From Antedon mediterranea (taxonomy: Eukaryota; Animalia; Echinodermata), in assembly GCF_964355755.1 (NCBI RefSeq), contig NC_092671.1, forward strand, positions 36,714,304 through 36,778,303: a DNA stretch of 64,000 nucleotides, written 5' to 3'. Made by a program: the position numbers and the translations under genes. The notes beneath the pieces are model-generated. The model did no database searches. It worked only from the letters and a program-made list of their open reading frames with translations, and was not told where the DNA came from. Positions 4,951 through 50,035 of the stretch are shown piece by piece (positions within the stretch are counted from its first letter, which is position 1; each line of letters starts with the position of its first letter).

Positions 4951-6112
4951 ATTTGAAGGAATAAAAAACACAATTTTTCTGTTGTTACAAAGATGGCACA
5001 TTTAATTTCTAACAGCTGACTATTTACAGTGATTCTATGGGAGCGCTATCCCACAGATAAACGCTAACAAAATGATCAAGGCTTGTGCCAAAACCTACAC
5101 AGTGCAAGAAACAAATCCCTCTTAGTCCCTTTTACTCCCAACAGGACTAAAAAAATACAATGATTACCTGACAATAAATTACAATTTCATTAGTAGCAAG
5201 TCAATTAGTACACAATCTGGTGCCATAAAGGGTCAGAGAGGGGTCAAAGTGACCAGAGGGGTCAAAGTGACCAGAGACCTCAAATAATTAATTAGAAGAC
5301 ATCATAATAATAACAAAAGGTATTTTCCACATCAACAGGAAAAAGAAAATCCCTGACTGGTGCTCCTAGGCAACGTATTATGAAAAAAATCTAAGCTACA
5401 CTTAAAGAACAAATGAAAATAAAATATATAAAACTATTCTACAACCAGAATGCAAGTGACAATGCTGATAAAGAGTGTCACATGTGATGTCACACGTGAT
5501 AAACATTTCTGGAATGATCAGATGACTAAGATAATATTCTATAAAGGTAACAAGGTATCCGTCAATCAAATGACTCGTTCACCACGGTTCTCATTAAAAT
5601 TCAACAATTAACAAAACAATGATAAAATGTGCTCAGATTTTAAATTCTTCAAAATTAAGAATCAAATGATATAATATCTATCTTATTAAATGTCTATAAA
5701 TAAGTAAATCTGTCACAAATGTTGATATAATCTTTAGTTTTTTACCAATTTAAGGGCACTATAAAATGCCATGTCACAGTATGAGGTCAAAGGTAAGTGA
5801 CATTGGGTAAATGAGTCGTTCACCCTTACACGACAACAAGTGGTAAAATTAAGTTTTAAAATCAAGTTGTACTGAAACAAATAAAATTTGGGCTCATTTA
5901 GTACTTAATAGTTATTTACAATCTTTAAACCATTGTTAACACTATTTGTTAAAAAAATTCATGATAAACGTAATCAATTTCTAGAGTCATCAATGGAAAT
6001 CTAAATAAAGTAAAGGGAAGACAAATGTATTTTACAACAAAAGGCATTATGGAATTGTGTTCCCCAAAGATTCAAGTTTATTGATTGTAAAGCTTAACCA
6101 AATTATACACGG

Positions 6113-6218: not shown

Positions 6219-6875
6219 CTAAGTAAACACTACTGAACATTGAAAGCTTCCTAATGTGGTAGGTTGAAAGACGTACACTCCTAAATAATAAACAAATTTA
6301 TTTTACGTTCCAGTGTTGAATAAAAAAGAGTTACGTAAACTCTCTTACTAAAAACATACCATTTTTTTTAATCAAGAAAAAATATTTTAAATCGATACAT
6401 TTGATATACATTTTTGTTTGAAAATTATTCAAAATATAAACAGAGAGTGTAGCAATGAATGGCGGCAGTCATCAGACGTCTGATCCGACTACCGACATTA
6501 TTCCAAAAAAAAATGGGGGGAGAAACAAACAAAAATGACAAACACCACGAATAATTATCAGCAAACGCTGACCACTGGTGGCGGGATAACGATCCAGAAG
6601 ATAAAAACAATTTTAGTTTTTTTTTTTTGTAAATTTAATTATAAAAAGAGCATCCATAGTAGAAATGCCAACGGCATCTCTGAGCAGCACCAACAATGCT
6701 GTCCTCATCGACTCAAATTTCATCTTTAGAAAATAAGTTTGAAACGAGTGAATTCACGACGCGTCCCCATTCGTGTCATCCTCAAGTATTTATTAATATC
6801 TACATGTTTTCAAAACCAGTGAACATCCCTCGTAAAATGGCTACAAAATCTTTAATAAATAAGTCTTGTTCATGC

Positions 6876-7132
6876 TTATAAGTTGTCTTCGGGTGATATT
6901 TGATTAACGGACGTCTGCATAGGTTCACTGGTGCGGAGCAACTCCAGTGATCCTGCAGGCGGCATATTAGTGACTGTTGCTGAGGATGATGGAGGTATCG
7001 TTGATAGATCGAGGCCATGGTGAATGCCGTATTCGTTGAGTTGTTGTTGTAGATGGCTTGATGGCTGATGTCCTAGATTGTCCATGAGTTCATTATAACC
7101 TCTCATTAAGCTACTTACAAGACTAGAAGAAC
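6876..7132 (-). CDS. TCF12: E-protein last coding exon (long C-terminus): GSSSLVSSLMRGYNELMDN...QISPEDNL*
   Basis: Acceptor ttttttCAG 7135-7133, phase 1, in frame with ORF 6876-7106. Confidence 0.8.
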
Positions 7133-7656: not shown

Positions 7657-7779
7657 CTTGGAGGCCATGCTGGGGTCCAAGGTGGTCACTGGTTGGCCCT
7701 AGACCACGATTTGGCAATTCATCTACTTTTTCTTCTTCTCGTCTTTTAAGGCACGCTGCTTTGGGGTTTAAATTGCGAT
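7657..7779 (-). CDS. TCF12: E-protein exon (C domain): [41 protein letters not shown]
   Basis: Acceptor CAG 7782-7780; donor GTAGGT (end 7657) or GTAAGT (end 7653); invariant [17 protein letters not shown]. Confidence 0.97.
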
Positions 7780-8147: not shown

Positions 8148-8374
8148 CTCTAACTTGTGTTTCTAGGCTGGTTATAACATTGACAGCTTGGTGAAGTATT
8201 AGGAGCTTTGTTTGTGCCTTATCTGTATTTAGGTGTAACTGACACATGCGACCCAACTCTTTGAATGCTTCATTAATATCTCGAACTCGGATTCTTTCTC
8301 TAGCGTTGTTTGCGCTTCTTCGCTCTTTTTCCTTCTCTTGCTTCGGGGGTGCTTCTTCCAGATCATCCGTAGTT
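8148..8374 (-). CDS. TCF12: E-protein bHLH exon (227 nt): [76 protein letters not shown]
   Basis: Acceptor (T)n-cgTAG 8377-8375, donor GTAAAT 8147-8142; unmistakable class I bHLH. Confidence 0.99.
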
Positions 8375-8948: not shown

Positions 8949-9123
8949 CGTTTTTTTGTTTTTCCTGAATTACTTGAACGACCATTATCACTTTTATTGT
9001 CGTCTGGTTTGGTTATATCCATTTTTTCCTCTTTCTTGGGTTTGGCGCCAATTGATTTCGTTTTTACCTTCTCAATCTTTAATCCGTCTCCTTGGTCATG
9101 TCCCATCAAGTCATTCTGTACTG
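8949..9123 (-). CDS. TCF12: E-protein exon: SVQNDLMGHDQGDGLKIEKVKTKSIGAKPKKEEKMDITKPDDNKSDNGRSSNSGKTKKR
   Basis: CAGCAG acceptor 9126-9121, donor GTAAGA, phases 1 to 2 fit both neighbours. Confidence 0.9.
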
Positions 9124-12951: not shown

Positions 12952-13051
12952 AGCTGAATGGTTGTTGAGGTTGTGCTATTTCTGATGGTGGGAGAGGAGC
13001 GCCAGACATTGCATTGCGATGATTGTCGGGTACAGATGAAGGAGGTCCACC
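12952..13051 (-). CDS. TCF12: E-protein exon: GGPPSSVPDNHRNAMSGAPLPPSEIAQPQQPFS
   Basis: Acceptor CAG 13054-13052, donor GTAAGT, 100 nt, phases 0 to 1. Confidence 0.88.
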
Positions 13052-14373
13052 CTGTCAATAAACAAAACAACAAATTAGCATAAAATGTATTATGTTCATT
13101 TCATTGATATGCTTTTTTGTTAGCTCCAATTTTCTATTGGTAAATAAAGAAAGAATTAATGAGAATGTTGTCAGTTTTAAAAACTAACTAATCAAAGCAA
13201 CAATTATTAATGACACATTTCATAAGAAATATGTAAATTTGAGAAAAAAAATTTATAAAAGTGACTGATTATGTGACAACCTGAAATGTGCATTGACTTG
13301 TCACATGTCAGCGATAAATATCAGTCCAAATCAAAAATGAAATATCACATTGAATGGTCAATAAGAGTTTTAATTTCCATCAGATAAAATTTGAAATCTC
13401 GGAAGAATTTAAGTATGAAACCTAATAACTTTTAAAACTTCATTATTTTATGATAACATAATTATTCTACATTATATAAAATGACTGACATAACTATATT
13501 TCTAATTGGTGCATTTTTTAACTTGCATAATTAAAGGAGATTGTCATAGACTTGGACATGGCAGATGATAAAGACAAGACAAGGTAGGTAGATAATAAAG
13601 AAATAAAGCAGAACAACGTTAAATAGAAAGCTAAGGAATAACAGAAAGATTTGTAAAGTAATTCTTACAACAAAATTATACATCTTATGAGGAAGATTTG
13701 CACTCTGTTCACTTCGCCAAGTCCTACCCTCCACATTCAAAACAATCAATAAATTACCTTTTAACATTTTACATATTTTAGTGTAGACTGTAAGAAGATG
13801 CTGGTAACAAATTGGGCAGAGCTATGACTGCAGGAATGCTAAATGTTTAGCAATTTTTTACAAAACTTTAAACAAGTACACTTGATAAAATAACCAAAAG
13901 ACAATTTAAGTGCATTACTGGGAATCATCCGAGTAATAAAGCATCGTTGAACTTTGGAAAAAAAGGTATGCAAGCAAATTTATTTATAGCTTGAACTTAA
14001 ACAGGCTTTATACAATTTTGTTAAAAGTATTTTTTTAATTTGGCTGTAGCAACAACAATAAGATTCACATTCTAAAAATATAGTTCCTAAATTTTTGACA
14101 AAATGACTCTTATATACAAATAGTGTAGTGATTGTTTGGCATCCTTACAAGCACGTAGAGCATAGGGGAAGCTAACAAGAAGAAACTTATTTAAAACAAT
14201 CAATTTGTAGATATTACAGACAAATATACAGCTTGACAGGATGAAATCACTAATACATGCAGCTGAAGAGATTTCAAAATCTTCTGCTAACAGCTCGCAA
14301 AAACAGCTGAAAAGAACATCTGAAATCCAGACAAGTATTTAAAATTAGAATGATAGAATAGCAGGTGGATTAC

Positions 14374-14460
14374 CATCATCTCAGGATAGAAGCTGTAATA
14401 GTGCGTCTCTGCAGGTGTCATGCCGTATGGGCTTGCGTACAAATGGTTTGGGTTCCACAT
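14374..14460 (-). CDS. TCF12: Predicted alternative first coding exon: MWNPNHLYASPYGMTPAETHYYSFYPEMM
   Basis: ATG at 14460 (A at -3), 29 codons, ATG|GTAATC phase-0 donor matching the next exon (13051); ATG-free ~200-nt leader after TATA/Inr. Confidence 0.65.
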
Positions 14461-14639
14461 ACTGTCTGCTTGATACTCGGATATCGTATATCAAAATGCT
14501 GCTACCCGGCGGTTCTTCGTGGCTACCCTCGTCGCTCACTCTTTACTTCGACTTCCACGAGAACTAGCAATCGTAGACAGGACCACAAAACAGTAAAAAT
14601 CGTACTAAATCCTTTGCAAACTAGCAGCGTGTAATATCT

Positions 14640-14880
14640 CCCAAGGCGGAAGTCGAATTGGAGAGAGCATGCTAGAGAATCGCTCTTATACTGGCGTGGA
14701 AGAACGTGATGTCACGTCGAGCGTATGGTGTATATTCAAATAATTCACATTAGACAGCTGGGTACGTGTTGAAAGCAGTGTTCAAGAGACGAACAAGAAA
14801 AGTTGACAGCGACGTAAAAGGCAAATTTGACAGCATGTGCTTGGTATCTATCCGCAGACTGTTAGCCGAGTTTGACAAAC
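14640..14880 (-). promoter_or_regulatory. Predicted internal promoter
   Basis: TATAAGA 14690-14684; Inr-like CCAATTC with A at 14659 (31 nt spacing); CpG-rich; CRE-like TGACATCA, ETS GCGGAAGT, CAGCTG 14755-14760, TTGACAG motifs. Confidence 0.6.
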
Positions 14881-16321
14881 CCCAGTCGTCCTTTTTTTTT
14901 GCCTACATTCAAGTGTGAAACCGTTTTCCTACTACTCTACTGTTGAAGTATTGCTATTTCCCTGGCGGATCTTACCAGAAATGAAGGCTCGAAAACAAAC
15001 CCAACGATTTAGTAGTAATTTCCTGCCTTTGCTGGCCTTCAACCACGATCTTAGATATATTCACCTACAACTTTCTTTAAAGGAAGTACTCTGCTAGTAA
15101 TCATATGAATCTAACCTAGCGACCACATAGCCAGCATTCATTAATGAACTCTAATATCGGCTAATTCAAATCTAAAAAACATTATCGTTCTATTTTCTAT
15201 TTTACATTCAACCAAAATAGTAAACTTTCTTTTGTTCTGAGAAAAGACATAATCTTAGCAAATTCGTATTAAATTAAATTTAAAAGACGCTAAATATTGT
15301 TTCTATATTGTTTTTGTTATTTTTGTTAATATCCAACAATTTAATCTTTGTTTTACATAATTATATTGATGGCCTTGTGTGGCCAAGATGTATGTACCAA
15401 TTTCAAACTAACCAATCAGAACGGTTCTAACACTTTAATATCAATGGCATCCTCAATGCTATTGAATCAAGTACAAACCAAATTTATTTCCGATTGCTGT
15501 TCTTCTAACTGCAACCACATGGTCTAGTACCTGACGTAACTATGGTTAAAGGTCTATTAATTGGGATTCGGTAATTAATGACAGAATACACTGAGCTGGC
15601 TTAAGAAGCCGACTTTACAAATTAGCCCTGATAAATCCGCAAGGATCAGTCAATTCAATATGATGTCAAGGGTTATTGTAAACACATGGATATGTTTGGA
15701 AATTGCTCAATAAAATAACTATATTGTACTACCACCTTGTATACTGTATAATGTATTGTAAATAGATAGATAATACCATGTAATCTGACAATATAATGTA
15801 AATGTTGTCACCGATAATAACGTAATATAGATAACATTTTTTCATAAAGTTATTGTGATTTTTAGGATTAACTATTGACTGCAGGAGGTGAATCTATCCA
15901 TAGTATACTAACACCATCAATTGAAAAAATACTTGCAGGCAGCAGGGGGTAATTCAGTAAAGTGAATGATGGAAGGGCAAAATAACAGCAGGGGTAATTC
16001 TGTCTAGCAAATGATAGAATAGCAAAGCAGCATGAAGGTACTGGGTGTTTGATACGATCATGCCCACAGCAGTCGTCGGATCACAAAAACTGATTCATAC
16101 GTTTAAGTTCATTCGCCTATGGTTTCGTCGTCGTACTAAAAATATTTTGATATATAATTTTTAATATTACAAAAATGGTTTAATGTAACAACCAAAACAA
16201 TTTAAGGAATATTTAAATCGATTTTAGTTGATACAATCTGTTATAAAAGGTTCATGATATTTAGAGAGACTCAGCACAATCTGTGAAAGCACACAAAGTG
16301 ACATCCACCAGGTTGACTTAC

Positions 16322-16525
16322 CATGTGAGGATGGTCAACACCATATTGTGCCGGATGACCGTAAGGATGGGAAATGCCGGGTGGCAGACCAGAACTGGAA
16401 TGTGGGGGTAATCCGTTCATCATTTCCGGTGGCATGCCGGGTGCCATTGGATTCATCCCTTGTCCTTGTGTTGCGTGTCTTTGTAAAACATGAATAGCAT
16501 CATTTAAGCATTCTTCCATTCGACT
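16322..16525 (-). CDS. TCF12: E-protein exon with AD2 helix: SRMEECLNDAIHVLQRHA...HPYGHPAQYGVDHPHM
   Basis: Acceptor CAG 16528-16526, donor GTAAGT, 204 nt, phase 0-0; matches recalled [21 protein letters not shown]. Confidence 0.96.
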
Positions 16526-22954: not shown

Positions 22955-23044
22955 CTATGGATGAGATTATAATTATTTTGTTAATATAATGTTAATTAAA
23001 TGCTATTAAAAATATTATATTTAGACAAACATACGTAAAAAAGT

Positions 23045-24230
23045 TAAATCTTTGTTTTTCATGTTTCGATTGAGTTGTTTACCGTTTTATCAATAGTCTG
23101 CAAAACATACAGTAGGTTAAGTCTGCTCGGGAGACTTAACCAAAATACCCAACAATGTTTTACACTAAGTCTACATTTTTCATCACATATTCACATGTTC
23201 CCCTTGTTGCCGTTACTACATTGTACGCAATTAAAGGGACACCGGGGAGTGGGAAAAGCGTTCCTGCGAGGCGAGCATAGTGTCAAAATGATTGTTGATC
23301 GTTCACAATACAAGATCCTCTGGGAAGCGCGTGAATGCTTTCTATTAAGCGTATTCAGCCAAACGTTCACAGTAGTTTTCTTTCATTCTGAGTATAATTG
23401 GAGTTGTCACGCATTAATCTTTCTATCATCACCTCATAGATACATGGATAAAGAAGCTTGTAAGGTTCCATATAGGCTGTGATAGCATTTGCACACGACA
23501 AATCCAAGTTTCTTAACGTGTAAAAGGGAAATCAATAGCGACACTTTTCACTTCTGGCTGAAGAATACAATGCTATTTGCATCAAAGAAATTGAAATATA
23601 TCAAAGATGGGGCCGATTGAAAGTGGCGGACGAAGGAAATGTAAGGTAGTCCACTGGGACTGCTCAACCTCGCTTGCATTATCTACGGAGGGTCACGGAC
23701 AAAATAATCACTTAGACGATATTCGTAATGAAAGTCCAATTGTTGGCCTGCGTAGTCTGTGAGGCTAAGCAAAAGGTGAAATGACTGAATGACAAAGCAT
23801 ATTGGCTGCAAGTAGCGAGCAAATTGGCTTTGGCAGGCCGACAATGCTAGCCTAATTTTGTAAAAAGTTGTTGAGAGAATTAATATAGCTAGAATCGACG
23901 CTGACGGAAGCCTCTTGTCTGAAACGTTGGGCCTAGGAAATTGAGCCCGACTCACTGAGCTACAAGATGGCAGTAGGGAAATTAACACCGACTTAAGGTG
24001 AAAAGGTCGTCCCCATAACGCCTTATAACCAGTTGAGTCAGGGAGACAATAGCCTATATCAATCGCCACCTCGCATATTTTTATCAAACCGTTGTTGGGG
24101 TTACACCTCTACGTTGCATTATCACCTCAACAATTTACCACAATGGGAAAACGCCGGACACACGGGAGCACAAAATAAATGTACACACATTTTAGAAATT
24201 TCAACAGGTAGGGATAAATGGTAACTGCCA
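23045..24230 (-). mobile_element. Decayed non-LTR retrotransposon 3' fragment (L1/Tx1-like, tentative)
   Basis: GC-richer 1.2-kb block with broken frames; remnants KALWGRPFHLKSVL...PNVSDK and a degenerate Cys motif; A-rich end near 23045. Confidence 0.4.
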
Positions 24231-24958
24231 ACAAAAGATAACAAATCACAAACGAATTCATAACTAATATAGGCCAAGTTGAGGTCATAATATTCATAAC
24301 CTCATTTCAAGTTTTTGTAGTTAATTAGTCTGATAAATATTCCCATGTAGATTAGAACCCAAAAAAACTAATTTAATTAATAACTAATGAACCTCCTTTT
24401 ACCAAAATATCTCAACCTCAAGTTTAATCAATAGTTCAGGGTGGCAGACAAGATTGAAAATTAAGTTAAAGTGGACTTAGTAGATGAAATTATATAGAAT
24501 TAAATATGCCATCACAACATGATAAGTCCAGCAAATTAAATTAACACGTTGGTAACTTCAAAGATGCAAACTGATTACCATTGTAATGCTATCAAAACAA
24601 AACCCATGAAAATCTATCCTAGTGGTAAATTGGACAAGACAGCAAAAAACGAACAGGAAAATTAGAATGTGCGATGACAAAGACAACGCTGATGTAGAGG
24701 TTATGTTAGTGCGAAACGACTAGACAAGGTTTCTGGTGTCTAATTGCATCATCATAATGTATAGCTATGAGCCACCAAAACACTAAAATAAACAGTGTCG
24801 ATGAACTTTCACACTTTAGTAGGTATATAACTAGATGCTTCTAGCAACAAAGCAAATTTAATACTGCAGAAAGCCATACCTCACATAATACAATATCAAT
24901 TGGAGAACTAAGGTGAGGATAGTCTTCTTCCACATGTAGTAGGAACTAATGTATACAT

Positions 24959-40417: not shown

Positions 40418-40504
40418 TAGGCGGTGTGAATTTGAATAAAGATGATGATATGGATACATAAAAGCAGACTCTAGATCAATCTCGGATCGTCTTGGATCTA
40501 ACAT
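40418..40504 (-). CDS. TCF12: Predicted E-Alt first coding exon: MLDPRRSEIDLESAFMYPYHHLYSNSHRL
   Basis: ATG 40504 after an in-frame TAA (second ATG 40459), CTA|GTAAGT phase-0 donor, in the intron just before the VYSP exon as for HEBAlt/E2-2Alt. Confidence 0.65.
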
Positions 40505-41673: not shown

Positions 41674-42871
41674 TTAGATATCTAATAAGAAGCTCAGAAT
41701 ATAAATCGTTTGTAAGATCAAGCAAGATAAAGATCGTGGAGTTTCCGTGGTAGGGTGTCTACCAATACAGGTCAATATAGGAGATAGCGACCTATGATCA
41801 CTCTTAAGTATAAGCTATAGAGGAAGTACGAGTACACTAACTGCCGTGTGTAACCAAGAAAAGCGTGGCTCCTTAATCCTACCATGTATTCACCTGTTGT
41901 AAGATGACATTGCTGAAAAATGGTATTTACACCAACTACACTAGACTGATTAATAAATGAACGCGTGTATATTTCTAGGGTGAAAAATAAACATTATCTT
42001 TTCCTAAATCAGAAATACATTTATTACTTCCTTGATAAAAAAAAGATTCTATAAATAAAATTTAAACATTATATCTACTAGCTATATTGCTGTTAAATAA
42101 AATCATTTTATTCTTATTTTTATCTTGAACCTTCAATTATAGATACCAAACAAAGGTTATCTTTCTGTTTTAGCATAATGCTATTATTTCTGTTAATGTT
42201 CTTCTTGTACTGGAAGAGATATACTGTTCATATTGAAATATGTTGACGTCCAAATAAAGCTAACACAGCCACTGATTTAGTCCTAAAGCCAGATCCATAT
42301 TTTAAACTATTCATATATTCAAACAAAAGATTGAAGGCTTAAATTCATCTCCGAATATTAAGTTTAACTTGGTATCAGGTCTACAACTTTCACGTCGTAT
42401 TACCAACTTCCTGTCTTGCCTATCAAAAAGGTCACATATGTGTAAGTTGGCCTCTTTATGCATATTCTATACACAAATACGCATTATCAAGGCAAAACGC
42501 TAAATCTTTTGTTAATGATTTTAGTTTGATGGTTGATCCAAGTGGCTTCCTGTACCTAATACAGATATTATGATGATTGCTAATACAAGGACCTGGATAA
42601 AGAAGGAAGATAATCCCAGGGATGAGGCCTGCCAGGAAATACAGCACTATACAGTTATCAGTTGGCTTAAAAACAACGCTACTTTTTAACTTCTGTGTGT
42701 GTGTTATAATATGTATTGTACAACCGGATATTAATGTTTGATTATTATCAACATTAATGTCGATTTCTGGGAAAACATGTGATAGTTTACTCCTTTTTAA
42801 AATAACAGTATTAGATTGTTTCTTCCCTATTTCACTTTGAGTTAAGCTCAGGAATAGAAACCCATGTTTAA

Positions 42872-43496
42872 AGCCCCATTTCCTACGTTTTTTAGATCTA
42901 ATTTAAGATCACAAACTATATTTAATGTAAAAATAATACTATATGGTCCTATTGCGATAACTTTTTTCGTCTTTAAACGGTTAAAAATGTGAAAAATAAA
43001 TCGATTCTAATAATTATAGCGGCCCGCTATAAATCCCAAAATGCATTGTGCTATTGTGATATTTTTGTTTTTCACCTGTAATTCGCCCACTTTTCGATCG
43101 ATCGTGAAGCCAAAACAAATGGAAGACTCCTAACTTTTCAGCGAAAATACCGGGTTTTCCCCAATTTGTATCAACGGAGTGTGGCAAAAATAGAAAGACA
43201 ATTAATGTAGCAACTATACAACGTCAGCCTAGGTATATAGCTAGCGTACGATGTTCGTACGTTATCGATGTTTACCAGCTAGGCCTACAAAACTAAGCCT
43301 AGCTAGGCTAGGCCTAAGACCGTCCACGAGAGGTCGATCGCCGCGACCTACTTAGGTAGTGCATTGTTTCTCACTTTTTATCATAATTTACCATAAAACG
43401 TACATTTAAGACAAGGAATGACATGGTTTAATGTTTTTAAAGTGATATATATGTATTATTTTCCAAAAAACGTCCAAAATTGCAGGGAAGGGGTCT
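42872..43496. mobile_element. Non-autonomous Kolobok-like element
   Basis: TTAA at 42868-42871 and 43497-43500; imperfect TIRs AGCCCCATTTCCTAC vs AGACCCCTTCCCTGC (purine-purine termini); CpG-rich interior. Confidence 0.6.
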
Positions 43497-44254
43497 TTAA
43501 ATATATATATATATATAATAACTACTAGCTTAGAATTTGTCAGATAGTTGGTAGATAACATACATGAAGGAGATCAAGTTGCTCTCTTTGCCATAAGAAT
43601 ATTGTTATTTTTGGTCATACATTATAGACGGACTATAGATGCATAAATATTTAAAAGCTATATTGTTAGGCCAACAGGATGCTACTGAATTTGTAATTAT
43701 AATAATAGGTATACATAATTATATGAATACAAAATGTAACAGGTTTGTTTGTTTGTCTATTAATAGAGAGAACTCAATCTTATTAAATTATCTATAATAA
43801 TGTATTACCAAAAATTGTCCAAAATGTTACTTTTATTATTATTATACTGCAAAAACATTCAAAAACGATCTTAATATTTTTTAAGACGAAGGTTCTATGT
43901 TATACAATAATTTGTTTAATATAATACTAAATAAAAAAATACTATGCCTCTTTAATGTATATAATTATTGTATTACTATTACATATTTACATTGTTTTAT
44001 GTTTTAATGTATGCTTTGAGTGGTGGTGTGGCACGCCTTATGGCAACAGTGGTCCTTCGACCTCTTTTGCCACTCCTTGGCACACTCAAAGTTTATGTGT
44101 TGTTTTAATGTTGCTAAAATTAATAAAATAAATAAATAATAAATTATTATAATTCTATCAATTTACAAACTTAAATAATCATAAATATAATTATTCTAGT
44201 AATCTCAGATTAATTTAATAAAGACATAAAAATTGCTTTCATAATTTGCACTTA

Positions 44255-44404: not shown

Positions 44405-46018
44405 TTTAAAGTCAATTGTTTTTGCACAAGCGCACCAAATCATTTACATCCCAAACAGCCCTTATTTCAATAGCATAATACAGATACTGACATTAATAAA
44501 TGTTACATTTTGAGAGAAAATAAATAAAATCTTATGGGAATTAGACGCTCAACTAGAAACATCAATCGTGGTAATCTGAATTACGAGAAGTGAGCAAAAG
44601 GCCACGATAGTTACATGTATTTCGTCTCTAGATTCTCGCTAAGTGTCTATACGTTTAGAAATTACACATTATATCTAGGCCTAGTAAAATATATATATAG
44701 GACGTTTGTCATGCTATATTCTTATGCCTCTTTTTCATATGCAGCTTATTAGTAAATAAAACCATGATAAAAAAAAATTAAAGATAGTTATTAAAAAAAA
44801 TAAAATGTACACATACTACAGACAAACAGGGGAAATATTATTAAATAAATTCATCTGATTCCGAATATAATTAACTGGACAATTATTACTTTTTTGTCAC
44901 TAAGGTATTTATACCATTTGTGTAGGTATTGTTTGGTTCAACAAAAAAGTAATTATATTTTCCTGTTAAGGGGAAATATATTTTAACACTAGTGGATATC
45001 CCTATTTTATGACACTTTATTGGGCCCCGAAGTTGTGCCTTTAGAGAGAGGTTACTTAAATACTAATTATATTTCATCCTTTATAGAAATTTGTTGTTTG
45101 TATGAAAAATTATTTTTCAGTTCTGTATATAAACAAAATATGTAATTTTGTTATTTTATATCTCTGTTTTAACAAGTTTTTTTTTATATTAAAATAAGAA
45201 AGCTTTTTCTTCAATGTTCTGTGTTTTTTAATTTGTTCTGAAGGAACGTGATGTGTTTATCTATGACCTGACTATGAAGTATATTATGTTTGCGATATTA
45301 GAAAACATCTTATGACATTTGTGGTGACATTCTTTAAAGTCTCATTCATCAAAAGTGACAAGTTGGGAGTGTCACCTGATCTTTTAAAAAAAGTTCACCC
45401 TATCAAGTAAGTCTTATCTATGGACTGCAAGATGGAATAAACATCTAGAATGATGATGACCTAGTCTGTTTATTACTGCCATGAGTAAGGGTAACTATTT
45501 AGAACAAGCCACCAAGCAGCAAACCGTTTTGTTCCTGGTCTCGGGCAAAAGGTATCAAATAAATCTATTATTAGTAATATCTAAGATTGCCACCCACCAA
45601 CTAATGTTTTATTTATTCATCCTATAGTTGTGGTCCTCTACGGACCCACGGCAGCAGTGCTTACTGTACCATGATCAGTACACTAGAAGATGAGGCAATG
45701 AGAGTGAATGTAATGACAAGCAATATGGCACAGACATCTCTCGAAACCCTTGCTCTTAAGGCTAACTCAGACAGCAATGTACAACGAAGCTTGACGAAAT
45801 GTCTTGACTCGTTGGTGCTGTCTGAATCCTGTCGATACATGTCGTATGGAAATAGCGCCGGGCGTAGTTTTTAGGTCATTGTGAGAACTTTAAACATGAT
45901 TAATTTTCTCTGGAATCTTTTCGGCCCTGGTCGTACGACGCTGTCTAAGTTGGCCTATACATGTCGGGTATAACATTCCGTTATCATTACCCCATACAGT
46001 ATCGCTCTCCAAACGCAC

Positions 46019-46074
46019 CTTATACCGTTTGCCGTTACTGTACATCGGGTATGAGAGGAGCGAATTCGGCACCT
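46019..46074 (-). CDS. TCF12: Candidate alternative exon: EVPNSLLSYPMYSNGKRYK
   Basis: TAG acceptor 46077-46075 (weak pyrimidine tract), AAG|GTGCGT donor, phases 1 to 0 as for the 32-nt exon. Confidence 0.45.
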
Positions 46075-46212
46075 CTATTTAAACGTCAACTTAAAACTTT
46101 TCTTTTTAATTAATTACTTAGTATTGTTAGGCGCTCTGTTTTTTGTAGGGCGTCATATAAAAACCTGAATAGAATAGAATAGATCGTGCAAGAAAACCAA
46201 AATGTGATTTAC

Positions 46213-46348
46213 CTGTTGCTGGTATTGGTGGTTGTTCTGGCATGGGCCGCCGTCTTGATGAGTTGTACATACTGTAATAAGATGCTGTTGATTTGCCATG
46301 AGGAGACAGGGAACCAGAGCTTGGCATTCCAAGCGCTAAAGCTGGCTG
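46213..46348 (-). CDS. TCF12: E-protein exon: (Q)PALALGMPSSGSLSPHGKSTASYYSMYNSSRRRPMPEQPPIPAT
   Basis: AAG-CAG tandem acceptor (start 46348 or 46345), donor GTAAAT; matches recalled [24 protein letters not shown]. Confidence 0.95.
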
Positions 46349-49742: not shown

Positions 49743-50035
49743 CAGCTGCTTATAGTTGTATAGTAAAGGCAGATGTGATCATACCCAGCCACCTGCACCA
49801 ATCGTTCATAGGTTTAGCCTAAGCCAAGCAGGCGAAAGTCAGGGAACCACACAGGTGGCTTGCTAGCTGTCTACTAACTCAATTGGAGGTGTCAGCCTAG
49901 CCAACTATAGCTAGCCTAGAACACAGGTGGGACTTGGACCAGTCCTCACACCACAGGTGTATGCATAAGACCAGCTGTCTAGTGCCTTCTCTGCTATAAC
50001 ATCTGAAACCTATTACAGTATCTATAATGCACCTG
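49743..50035. promoter_or_regulatory. Homotypic E-box cluster (candidate enhancer)
   Basis: 9 sites in 293 bp: CAGCTG 49743, 49972; CAGATG/CATCTG 49770, 50000; CACCTG/CAGGTG 49790, 49852, 49924, 49954, 50030. Confidence 0.7.

Follow-up and report, generated by a model that had tools for sequence, protein, structure and literature searches.

An intron of the E-protein gene of the crinoid Antedon mediterranea contains a candidate coding first exon, which on the basis of sequence comparison probably represents a real and ancient third start of this gene, transcribed and spliced in Antedon. On balance, we lean slightly towards the explanation as a whole, namely that a conserved internal start makes a predicted DNA-binding brake on E-box activation. 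Proneural, myogenic and blood bHLH factors have E-proteins as their common partners, and all natural isoforms in the literature examined retain at least one activation domain. If the proposed reading is true, an isoform that is conserved and has neither AD1 nor the AD2 core would add a gene-encoded layer of control, and such an isoform would escape gene models as well as 5'-exon-directed knock-downs and probes in echinoderm, annelid and mollusc work.

Host gene and candidate first exon

The window, i.e., the whole 64-kb stretch of Antedon DNA that was analysed, comprises a TCF12-like E-protein gene on the minus strand. Over 75 aa, its bHLH exon (8373-8149) shows 100% identity to the Antedon TCF12-like protein XP_071943327.1, and the E-protein bHLH (PF00010 match) together with the C domain places the gene in class I of the bHLH family. 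The RefSeq isoforms form a cluster of six in Antedon (601-748 aa) and of three in Anneissia japonica (670-763 aa). All nine include the AD2-helix exon, and none (0/6 in Antedon, 0/3 in Anneissia) starts at a 14460-type position. The exons relevant to the candidate are:

40418-40504, minus strand: E-Alt first exon of the known type (RefSeq isoform X6), 29 codons, phase 0
16322-16525, minus strand: exon of the AD2 core helix (LNDAIHVL), skipped by the predicted short form; present in RefSeq isoforms X1-X6, spliced to 13051 in run X1
12952-13051, minus strand: acceptor exon (GGPPSS...), phase 0; from RefSeq, with joint 13050/16321 in run X1
8949-9123, minus strand: Lys-rich linker exon; RefSeq mapping and in silico splicing
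8148-8374, minus strand: bHLH exon; identity to XP_071943327.1 and PF00010
7653-7779, minus strand: exon of the C domain; its donors at 7657 (long tail) and 7653 (short tail) are separated by 4 nt
6876-7132, minus strand: last coding exon; RefSeq mapping and in silico splicing

The gene model itself offers some further observations. The donors at 7657 and 7653 select either a tail of 85 aa or the short one, and a CAGCAG acceptor at 9123/9120 leads to one-residue isoform variants. At 38664-38300, a 93-nt unit comprising the 3' end of the VYSP exon together with its donor is repeated in tandem, and RefSeq isoform X5 begins within these copies; this is probably due to a faulty model or to a recent duplication of the exon end.

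The candidate exon is located in the intron 3' of the AD2-helix exon and 5' of the 13051 exon on the minus strand. Its anatomy, in the direction of transcription and followed by the surrounding elements, is:

14970-14978, minus strand: strong donor CTG/GTAAGA (14976), upstream of the TATA-like box, 11.6 bits
14684-14690, minus strand: TATA-like box TATAAGA, read from the sequence; the counterpart in locus L044 (see below) is TATAAAA
14655-14661, minus strand: Inr-like CCAATTC with the A at 14659 as predicted start site, 31 nt from the first T of the TATA-like box
14461-14659, minus strand: predicted 5' leader, read from the sequence
14374-14460, minus strand: coding part of the first exon, 29 codons, Tyr-rich, starting MWNPNHLY; based on the codon score and on a start that resembles L044 and Elysia P0230
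14368-14376, minus strand: weak phase-0 donor ATG/GTAATC, 1.7 bits
14251-15100, unstranded: CpG-rich single-copy patch, predicted promoter region; based on CpG o/e and copy checks
14260-14760, unstranded: five E-protein-type E-boxes, CAGCTG at 14260, 14304 and 14755, CAGGTG at 14362 and 14412

Most of these elements had been proposed in an earlier, sequence-only reading, and TATAAGA at 14690, the Inr 31 nt further on, the ATG at 14460 and the 29 codons can all be read directly. The leader, put at about 200 nt without an ATG, measures 199 nt and is ATG-free; the start indeed lies 3' of the AD2-helix exon, the LNDAIHVL exon (16525-16322) being situated upstream. The claimed fit between donor and 13051 acceptor holds, as both are in phase 0, and the donor is weak. 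Five E-boxes are present as described, yet two of their positions were off by 1, the true ones being 14304 and 14412. The products of 322 aa and 241 aa were reproduced by in silico splicing to 13051 and onward, and their C-terminal parts are those of RefSeq isoforms X1 and X4. The acceptor (CAG/GGT at 13051, phase 0) is in use, since a run X1 contig contains the joint 13050/16321. Thus, the elements of an alternative coding first exon, i.e., a core promoter, an ATG, an open frame and an in-phase donor, are assembled at this site, the donor being weak. The strong donor at 14976 points to a possible second, non-coding first exon.

The patch, previously described as CpG-rich within an AT-rich intron, contains the most CpG-rich 500-mer of the window (14401-14900, 30 CpG). 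The CpG o/e amounts to 1.11 for 14374-14880 versus 0.59 for the whole window, and to 0.94 for 14251-15100 versus 0.30 and 0.71 in the remaining parts of the intron. A composite of TATA, Inr, ATG-free leader, at least 20 codons and a phase-0 GT, the criteria of which were chosen after the feature had been seen, occurs a single time on the minus strand of the window, at the candidate exon. Shuffled sequences yield this composite 0.45 times per 64 kb (block-shuffled strands), 0/40 times in CpG-rich DNA and in 5 of 3000 patch shuffles. Judged by the codon usage of the gene itself, the 29 codons reach 12.5 bits (p=0.011 against 884 open dinucleotide shuffles), while the 159 other intronic ATG-ORFs peak at 2.2 and the true E-Alt exon scores 0.5. 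CAGCTG/CAGGTG boxes number 5 at the patch versus 0.44 expected (0/2000 shuffles), and five E-boxes within any 600 nt were obtained in 0/60 shuffled whole windows. Each of the 15 true donors of the gene outscores the candidate donor (leave-one-out 2.6-11.1 bits), and the latter ranks only within the top 21% of 3584 minus-strand GT sites. Rfam yields 0 matches within the intron, and none of 20 variant sites falls inside 14374-14880 (p about 0.06), a result that was given no weight.

Run X1, a set of assembled contigs, is RNA-like in that it includes a spliced contig. It contains neither the 14374^13051 joint nor cover at 14374-14516, and one unspliced contig extends over 14517-15042, crossing the predicted start site. 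Because assembled contigs lose rare forms and cannot reveal starts or levels, this run was weighed neither for nor against the exon.

Elsewhere in the gene, CpG-rich intronic patches are found at 23000-24250, 42750-43500 and 45500-46250, none of them with the full first-exon composite. The end of a run X1 contig hinted at a second alternative first exon in the patch at 23.0-24.25 kb, which was dropped because this end fits an intron/exon branch at the 27636 donor. In an upstream intron, seven CAGCTG/CACCTG/CAGGTG boxes lie within about 290 nt (49743-50030; 0.51 expected, 0/1000 shuffles) and form a candidate autoregulatory or proneural enhancer. Runs X1 and X5 carry a 33-nt insertion allele at 15652-15655.

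Counterparts at other E-protein loci

A scan of metagenome contigs yielded 80 of 149 loci with E-protein relatives. One of these, L044, has exons that among the proteins compared best match the annelid Lamellibrachia, and spans the same intron, its AD2-helix exon ending PESHQ/GT. In this intron, TATAAAA at 5087 is located 63 nt upstream of an ATG at 5150, from which an ORF of 83 codons with 13 Tyr extends (start MWNSHLQY, end SQYYW). Its donor TGG/GTAAGT corresponds to the consensus and is in phase 0, as is the next exon at 6491. A second counterpart, RRG08_010440 (P0230) of Elysia crispata, was found among the best 120 of 1,232 short E-protein matches and is a gene model on a 113-kb contig. 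It possesses a unique, His/Pro/Tyr-rich N-terminus of 121 aa (MYPSHTPY...SPYYW) joined at GSHHGM, where Elysia chlorotica has the AD2-helix exon ending GSHM. The P0230 junction is homologous to DHPHM/GGPP in Antedon.

With the first 12 aa of the Antedon leader as query, L044:5150 is joint best among 10,220 ATG-started 12-mers (2/10,220; 80 loci, both strands); the L044 intron holds 36 ATG starts of such kind. The Elysia start ranked 27th or lower in the 12-aa test against the Antedon and L044 starts. An anchored motif of all three starts, built after the three sequences had been seen, matches only 14460 of the window and L044:5150 among 11,439 ATG starts; of the 280 proteins compared, P0230 is the sole match. 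YYW before an in-frame GT was encountered at 1 of 15,723 donor-anchored ends, at L044:5398, and the Antedon leader is devoid of a YYW end. Tyr accounts for 5/29 residues of the leader in Antedon, 13/83 in L044 and 8/121 in P0230. When the three leaders are aligned locally without an anchor, none of the alignments reaches significance over shuffled sequence (p 0.36, 0.06 and 0.71), and the DNA of the counterparts gives no in-register alignment.

Among nine genomic loci spanning the interval, the composite is present in L044 and absent from the other eight (L022, L025, L035, L045, L048, L049, L052 and L066), which by eye comprise one fish-like, five arthropod-like and two divergent loci. Two more loci are uninformative, as no AD2-helix exon is seen in L064 and L047 ends short of it. 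A looser composite occurs in 68/1000 shuffles of the L044 intron, which is CpG-poor (o/e 0.14) and shows no E-box excess at the exon. A leader search with a 40-codon query returned no candidate among protein representatives of 71-2000 aa, and across 1.84 billion representatives produced 1 match, an unrelated repeat protein. No crinoid protein is found among the best 120 of the 1,232 short E-protein matches. Odd N-termini at the equivalent junction in the vertebrate fragments P0130, P0132, P0162, P0222 and P0240 were discarded, as they are mutually unlike and look like model artefacts.

Counterparts in the orthologous intron are thus provided by L044 and P0230. From the sequences, we consider the link between annelid and gastropod to be strong and that to Antedon, which consists of the same intron, phase, TATA, start motif and Tyr richness, to be good. 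Because both counterparts lie at the same place, the candidate is probably a real, ancient start, and the exon has probably been conserved since the common ancestor with lophotrochozoans. The L044 intron and the P0230 junction also provide the main support for the initial claim that an internal promoter, together with a first exon that is coding, lies 3' of the AD2 helix.

Other loci of the scan are of interest for different reasons. L007 (about 240-300) is a transcript-like, divergent E-protein contig, the N-terminus of which is short and unique and joins the VYSP exon in an E-Alt-like manner, and AD1-bearing forms of its type are L001, L004 and L008; judged from L007, E-Alt may be older than reported. 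L019, L020 and L021 are transcript-like E-protein contigs, the open frame of which is without a recognisable AD1 or AD2 helix. The Antedon gene contains a single bHLH exon, and lophotrochozoan-type genes (L044 8313-8965, L046, L047 7293-8927) contain 2 to 5 in tandem, an E12/E47-like choice.

Predicted product and rival explanations

The predicted short form loses AD1, AD3/DES, the KRRK stretch, the GKALAS region and the AD2 core, and it keeps the Pro/Ser linker, the Lys-rich linker, the bHLH, the C domain and either tail. Outside the bHLH, its hydrophobic motifs of LDEAI-like spacing are found in the leader and the long tail, and none in the linkers. To place the end of the human AD2 fragment, a length of 671 aa was assumed for TCF4-B+. 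The KIX-binding part of E2A AD2 is LDEAI (PMC4066744, excerpt), and its Antedon counterpart lies in the skipped exon. The AD2 fragment of human TCF4 employed by Sepp 2011 comprises G316-G496 (PMC3137626, excerpt) and extends about 45 residues beyond the equivalent junction, and therefore, the positional equivalent of the distal end of AD2 is retained. Accordingly, the designation of the product as “without AD2” in the sequence-only reading is appropriate for the KIX-binding core, but not for the whole of the broad human fragment.

In the proposed mechanism, a TATA-driven internal promoter would give rise to the 29-codon first exon, the splicing of which to 13051 would yield an E-protein of 322 or 241 aa. 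By virtue of its unchanged bHLH and C domain, this protein would form dimers with class II partners, Id and full-length E-protein, and the short-form dimers would bind CAGCTG/CACCTG. Since the short form brings no KIX-binding motif of its own, dimers dependent on E-protein activation domains would be silent and compete with active ones. In Drosophila, the proneural activity of Sc is absolutely dependent on the TADs of Da, and Da without both TADs neither pulls down E(spl)m7 nor promotes Sc turnover (PMC4357701, excerpt). From the dependence of Sc on the Da activation domains, a DNA-binding competitor therefore appears to be the most likely role. Provided that the exon is real, we rate the function as a DNA-binding brake or competitor as its main role slightly better than even, and as fairly probable at the upper end of our estimate. 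Moreover, because five E-boxes cluster at the predicted promoter, we propose that E-protein activity might switch the start on and thereby establish a negative feedback loop. The Antedon E-boxes, taken by themselves, suggest this loop, which is the weakest step of the mechanism.

That the Tyr-rich leader is conserved speaks against a product that is merely passive, and the main rival to the brake role assigns the function to this leader: the exon would be real, and the leader itself an activation or interaction module, perhaps signal-regulated, that swaps AD1/AD2 for another switch. We consider this unlikely, even though Tyr richness is kept in all three leaders, the L044 leader presumably resembles Ser/Tyr/Gly/Gln-rich activation regions, and, among 1,218 other starts of the window, an internal Met of the E-Alt exon matches the first 12 aa best. 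Phosphorylation of YYY in the HEBAlt leader raises activity 10-fold in a JAK-dependent manner (PMC9385190, excerpt); HEBAlt, however, retains AD2, and the Antedon leader is short and poor in acidic residues (2/29). Furthermore, the likeness of the 29-mer to E2-2Alt (Tyr-rich, GMT-x5-YY; p=0.07) and to the Antedon E-Alt (p 0.29) is not significant against shuffles, and neither is homology of the leader to the Alt domain. It appears very improbable that the short form is a partner-dependent activator, which would serve as a DNA-binding half for partners with a strong activation domain and, being without AD1/DES, would escape E(spl)/ETO and stabilise the partner. This role would agree with the binding of ETO to AD1 and DES (PMC8283981, excerpt) and with the loss of E(spl)m7 pull-down and Sc turnover in Da without TADs, but it conflicts with the absolute need of Sc for these TADs (PMC4357701, excerpt).

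Two further explanations dispense with the coding exon. The patch could be an intronic enhancer rich in E-boxes, or else a non-coding start with 14976 as its donor, the 29-codon ORF being unused in Antedon. The exon is missing from the RefSeq annotation, the donor is weak at 14374 and strong at 14976, and the seven-E-box cluster at 49743-50030 occurs in the same gene without first-exon anatomy; yet the codon score tops 159/159 other intronic ATG-ORFs and a similar start is present in the same intron of L044, and we regard this explanation as quite improbable. It seems extremely improbable that the patch is what remains of a transposon and that chance produced the composite. While the window holds several other CpG-rich patches and many repeats, it contains no second copy of this patch, and the exon has a cross-phylum counterpart. 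A match to a multicopy transposon, named at the outset as evidence against the exon, did not emerge: in DNA runs X3 and X4 a single contig spans the patch without a repeat pile-up at 90% identity, unlike neighbouring repeats, a threshold that old diverged copies may escape.

Under the preferred reading of a DNA-binding brake, a broader scenario can be tentatively outlined. The single E-protein gene of the bilaterian ancestor might have possessed a third, deep start for a Tyr-led, AD-free and self-induced DNA-binding brake beside Id/Emc, which was kept in crinoids, annelids and gastropods and maybe lost in vertebrates and arthropods; we consider this scenario possible, yet rather doubtful.

Comparison with known E-protein isoforms and Id

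Alternative N-termini of E-proteins are already known, and a start 3' of the AD2 core is apparently undescribed in the literature searched (titles and abstract starts, subscription papers being mostly outside), where we found no description of a natural isoform beginning 3' of AD2. HEBAlt, E2-2Alt (TCF4-A) and the sea urchin E-Alt, reportedly the subject of Schrankel et al. 2016 (Dev Biol 416:149), also employ an internal first exon, which encodes a short Tyr-containing leader replacing AD1 and joins in phase 0. As previously noted, the E-Alt start lies further upstream and AD2 is kept, which in Antedon corresponds to the first exon of RefSeq isoform X6 (40504-40418). In the Alt forms, the first exon is spliced to the VYSP/VYAP exon and AD2 is retained (PMC9385190, excerpt), whereas the candidate is situated 3' of a further six internal exons, joins at 13051 and leaves out the AD2 core. 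The candidate differs from the E-Alt (HEBAlt) type in the position of its join, which is not upstream of the VYSP/VYAP exon, and in the loss of the AD2 core.

The N-terminus of the short human TCF4 isoforms (down to TCF4-I) is likewise shortened by many alternative 5' exons. In the available excerpt on human TCF4, AD2 is part of all isoforms and the most 3' first exons precede exon 10 (PMC3137626), whereas the candidate product is without the AD2 core. In long reads from mouse cortex, the TCF4 isoforms were limited to B, C, D, A and I (PMC9666405, excerpt). Engineered Drosophila Da-deltaTADs also consists of the bHLH-containing C-terminal part without both activation domains, yet it is an artificial truncation (PMC4357701, excerpt), while the candidate features a predicted natural promoter and a conserved leader. 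Finally, the short form resembles Id/Emc in that it is predicted to lower E-protein output and, like Id, is possibly induced by E-proteins. Id is without a basic region and takes E-proteins off DNA; in contrast, the predicted short form keeps the basic region and is encoded by the E-protein gene itself.
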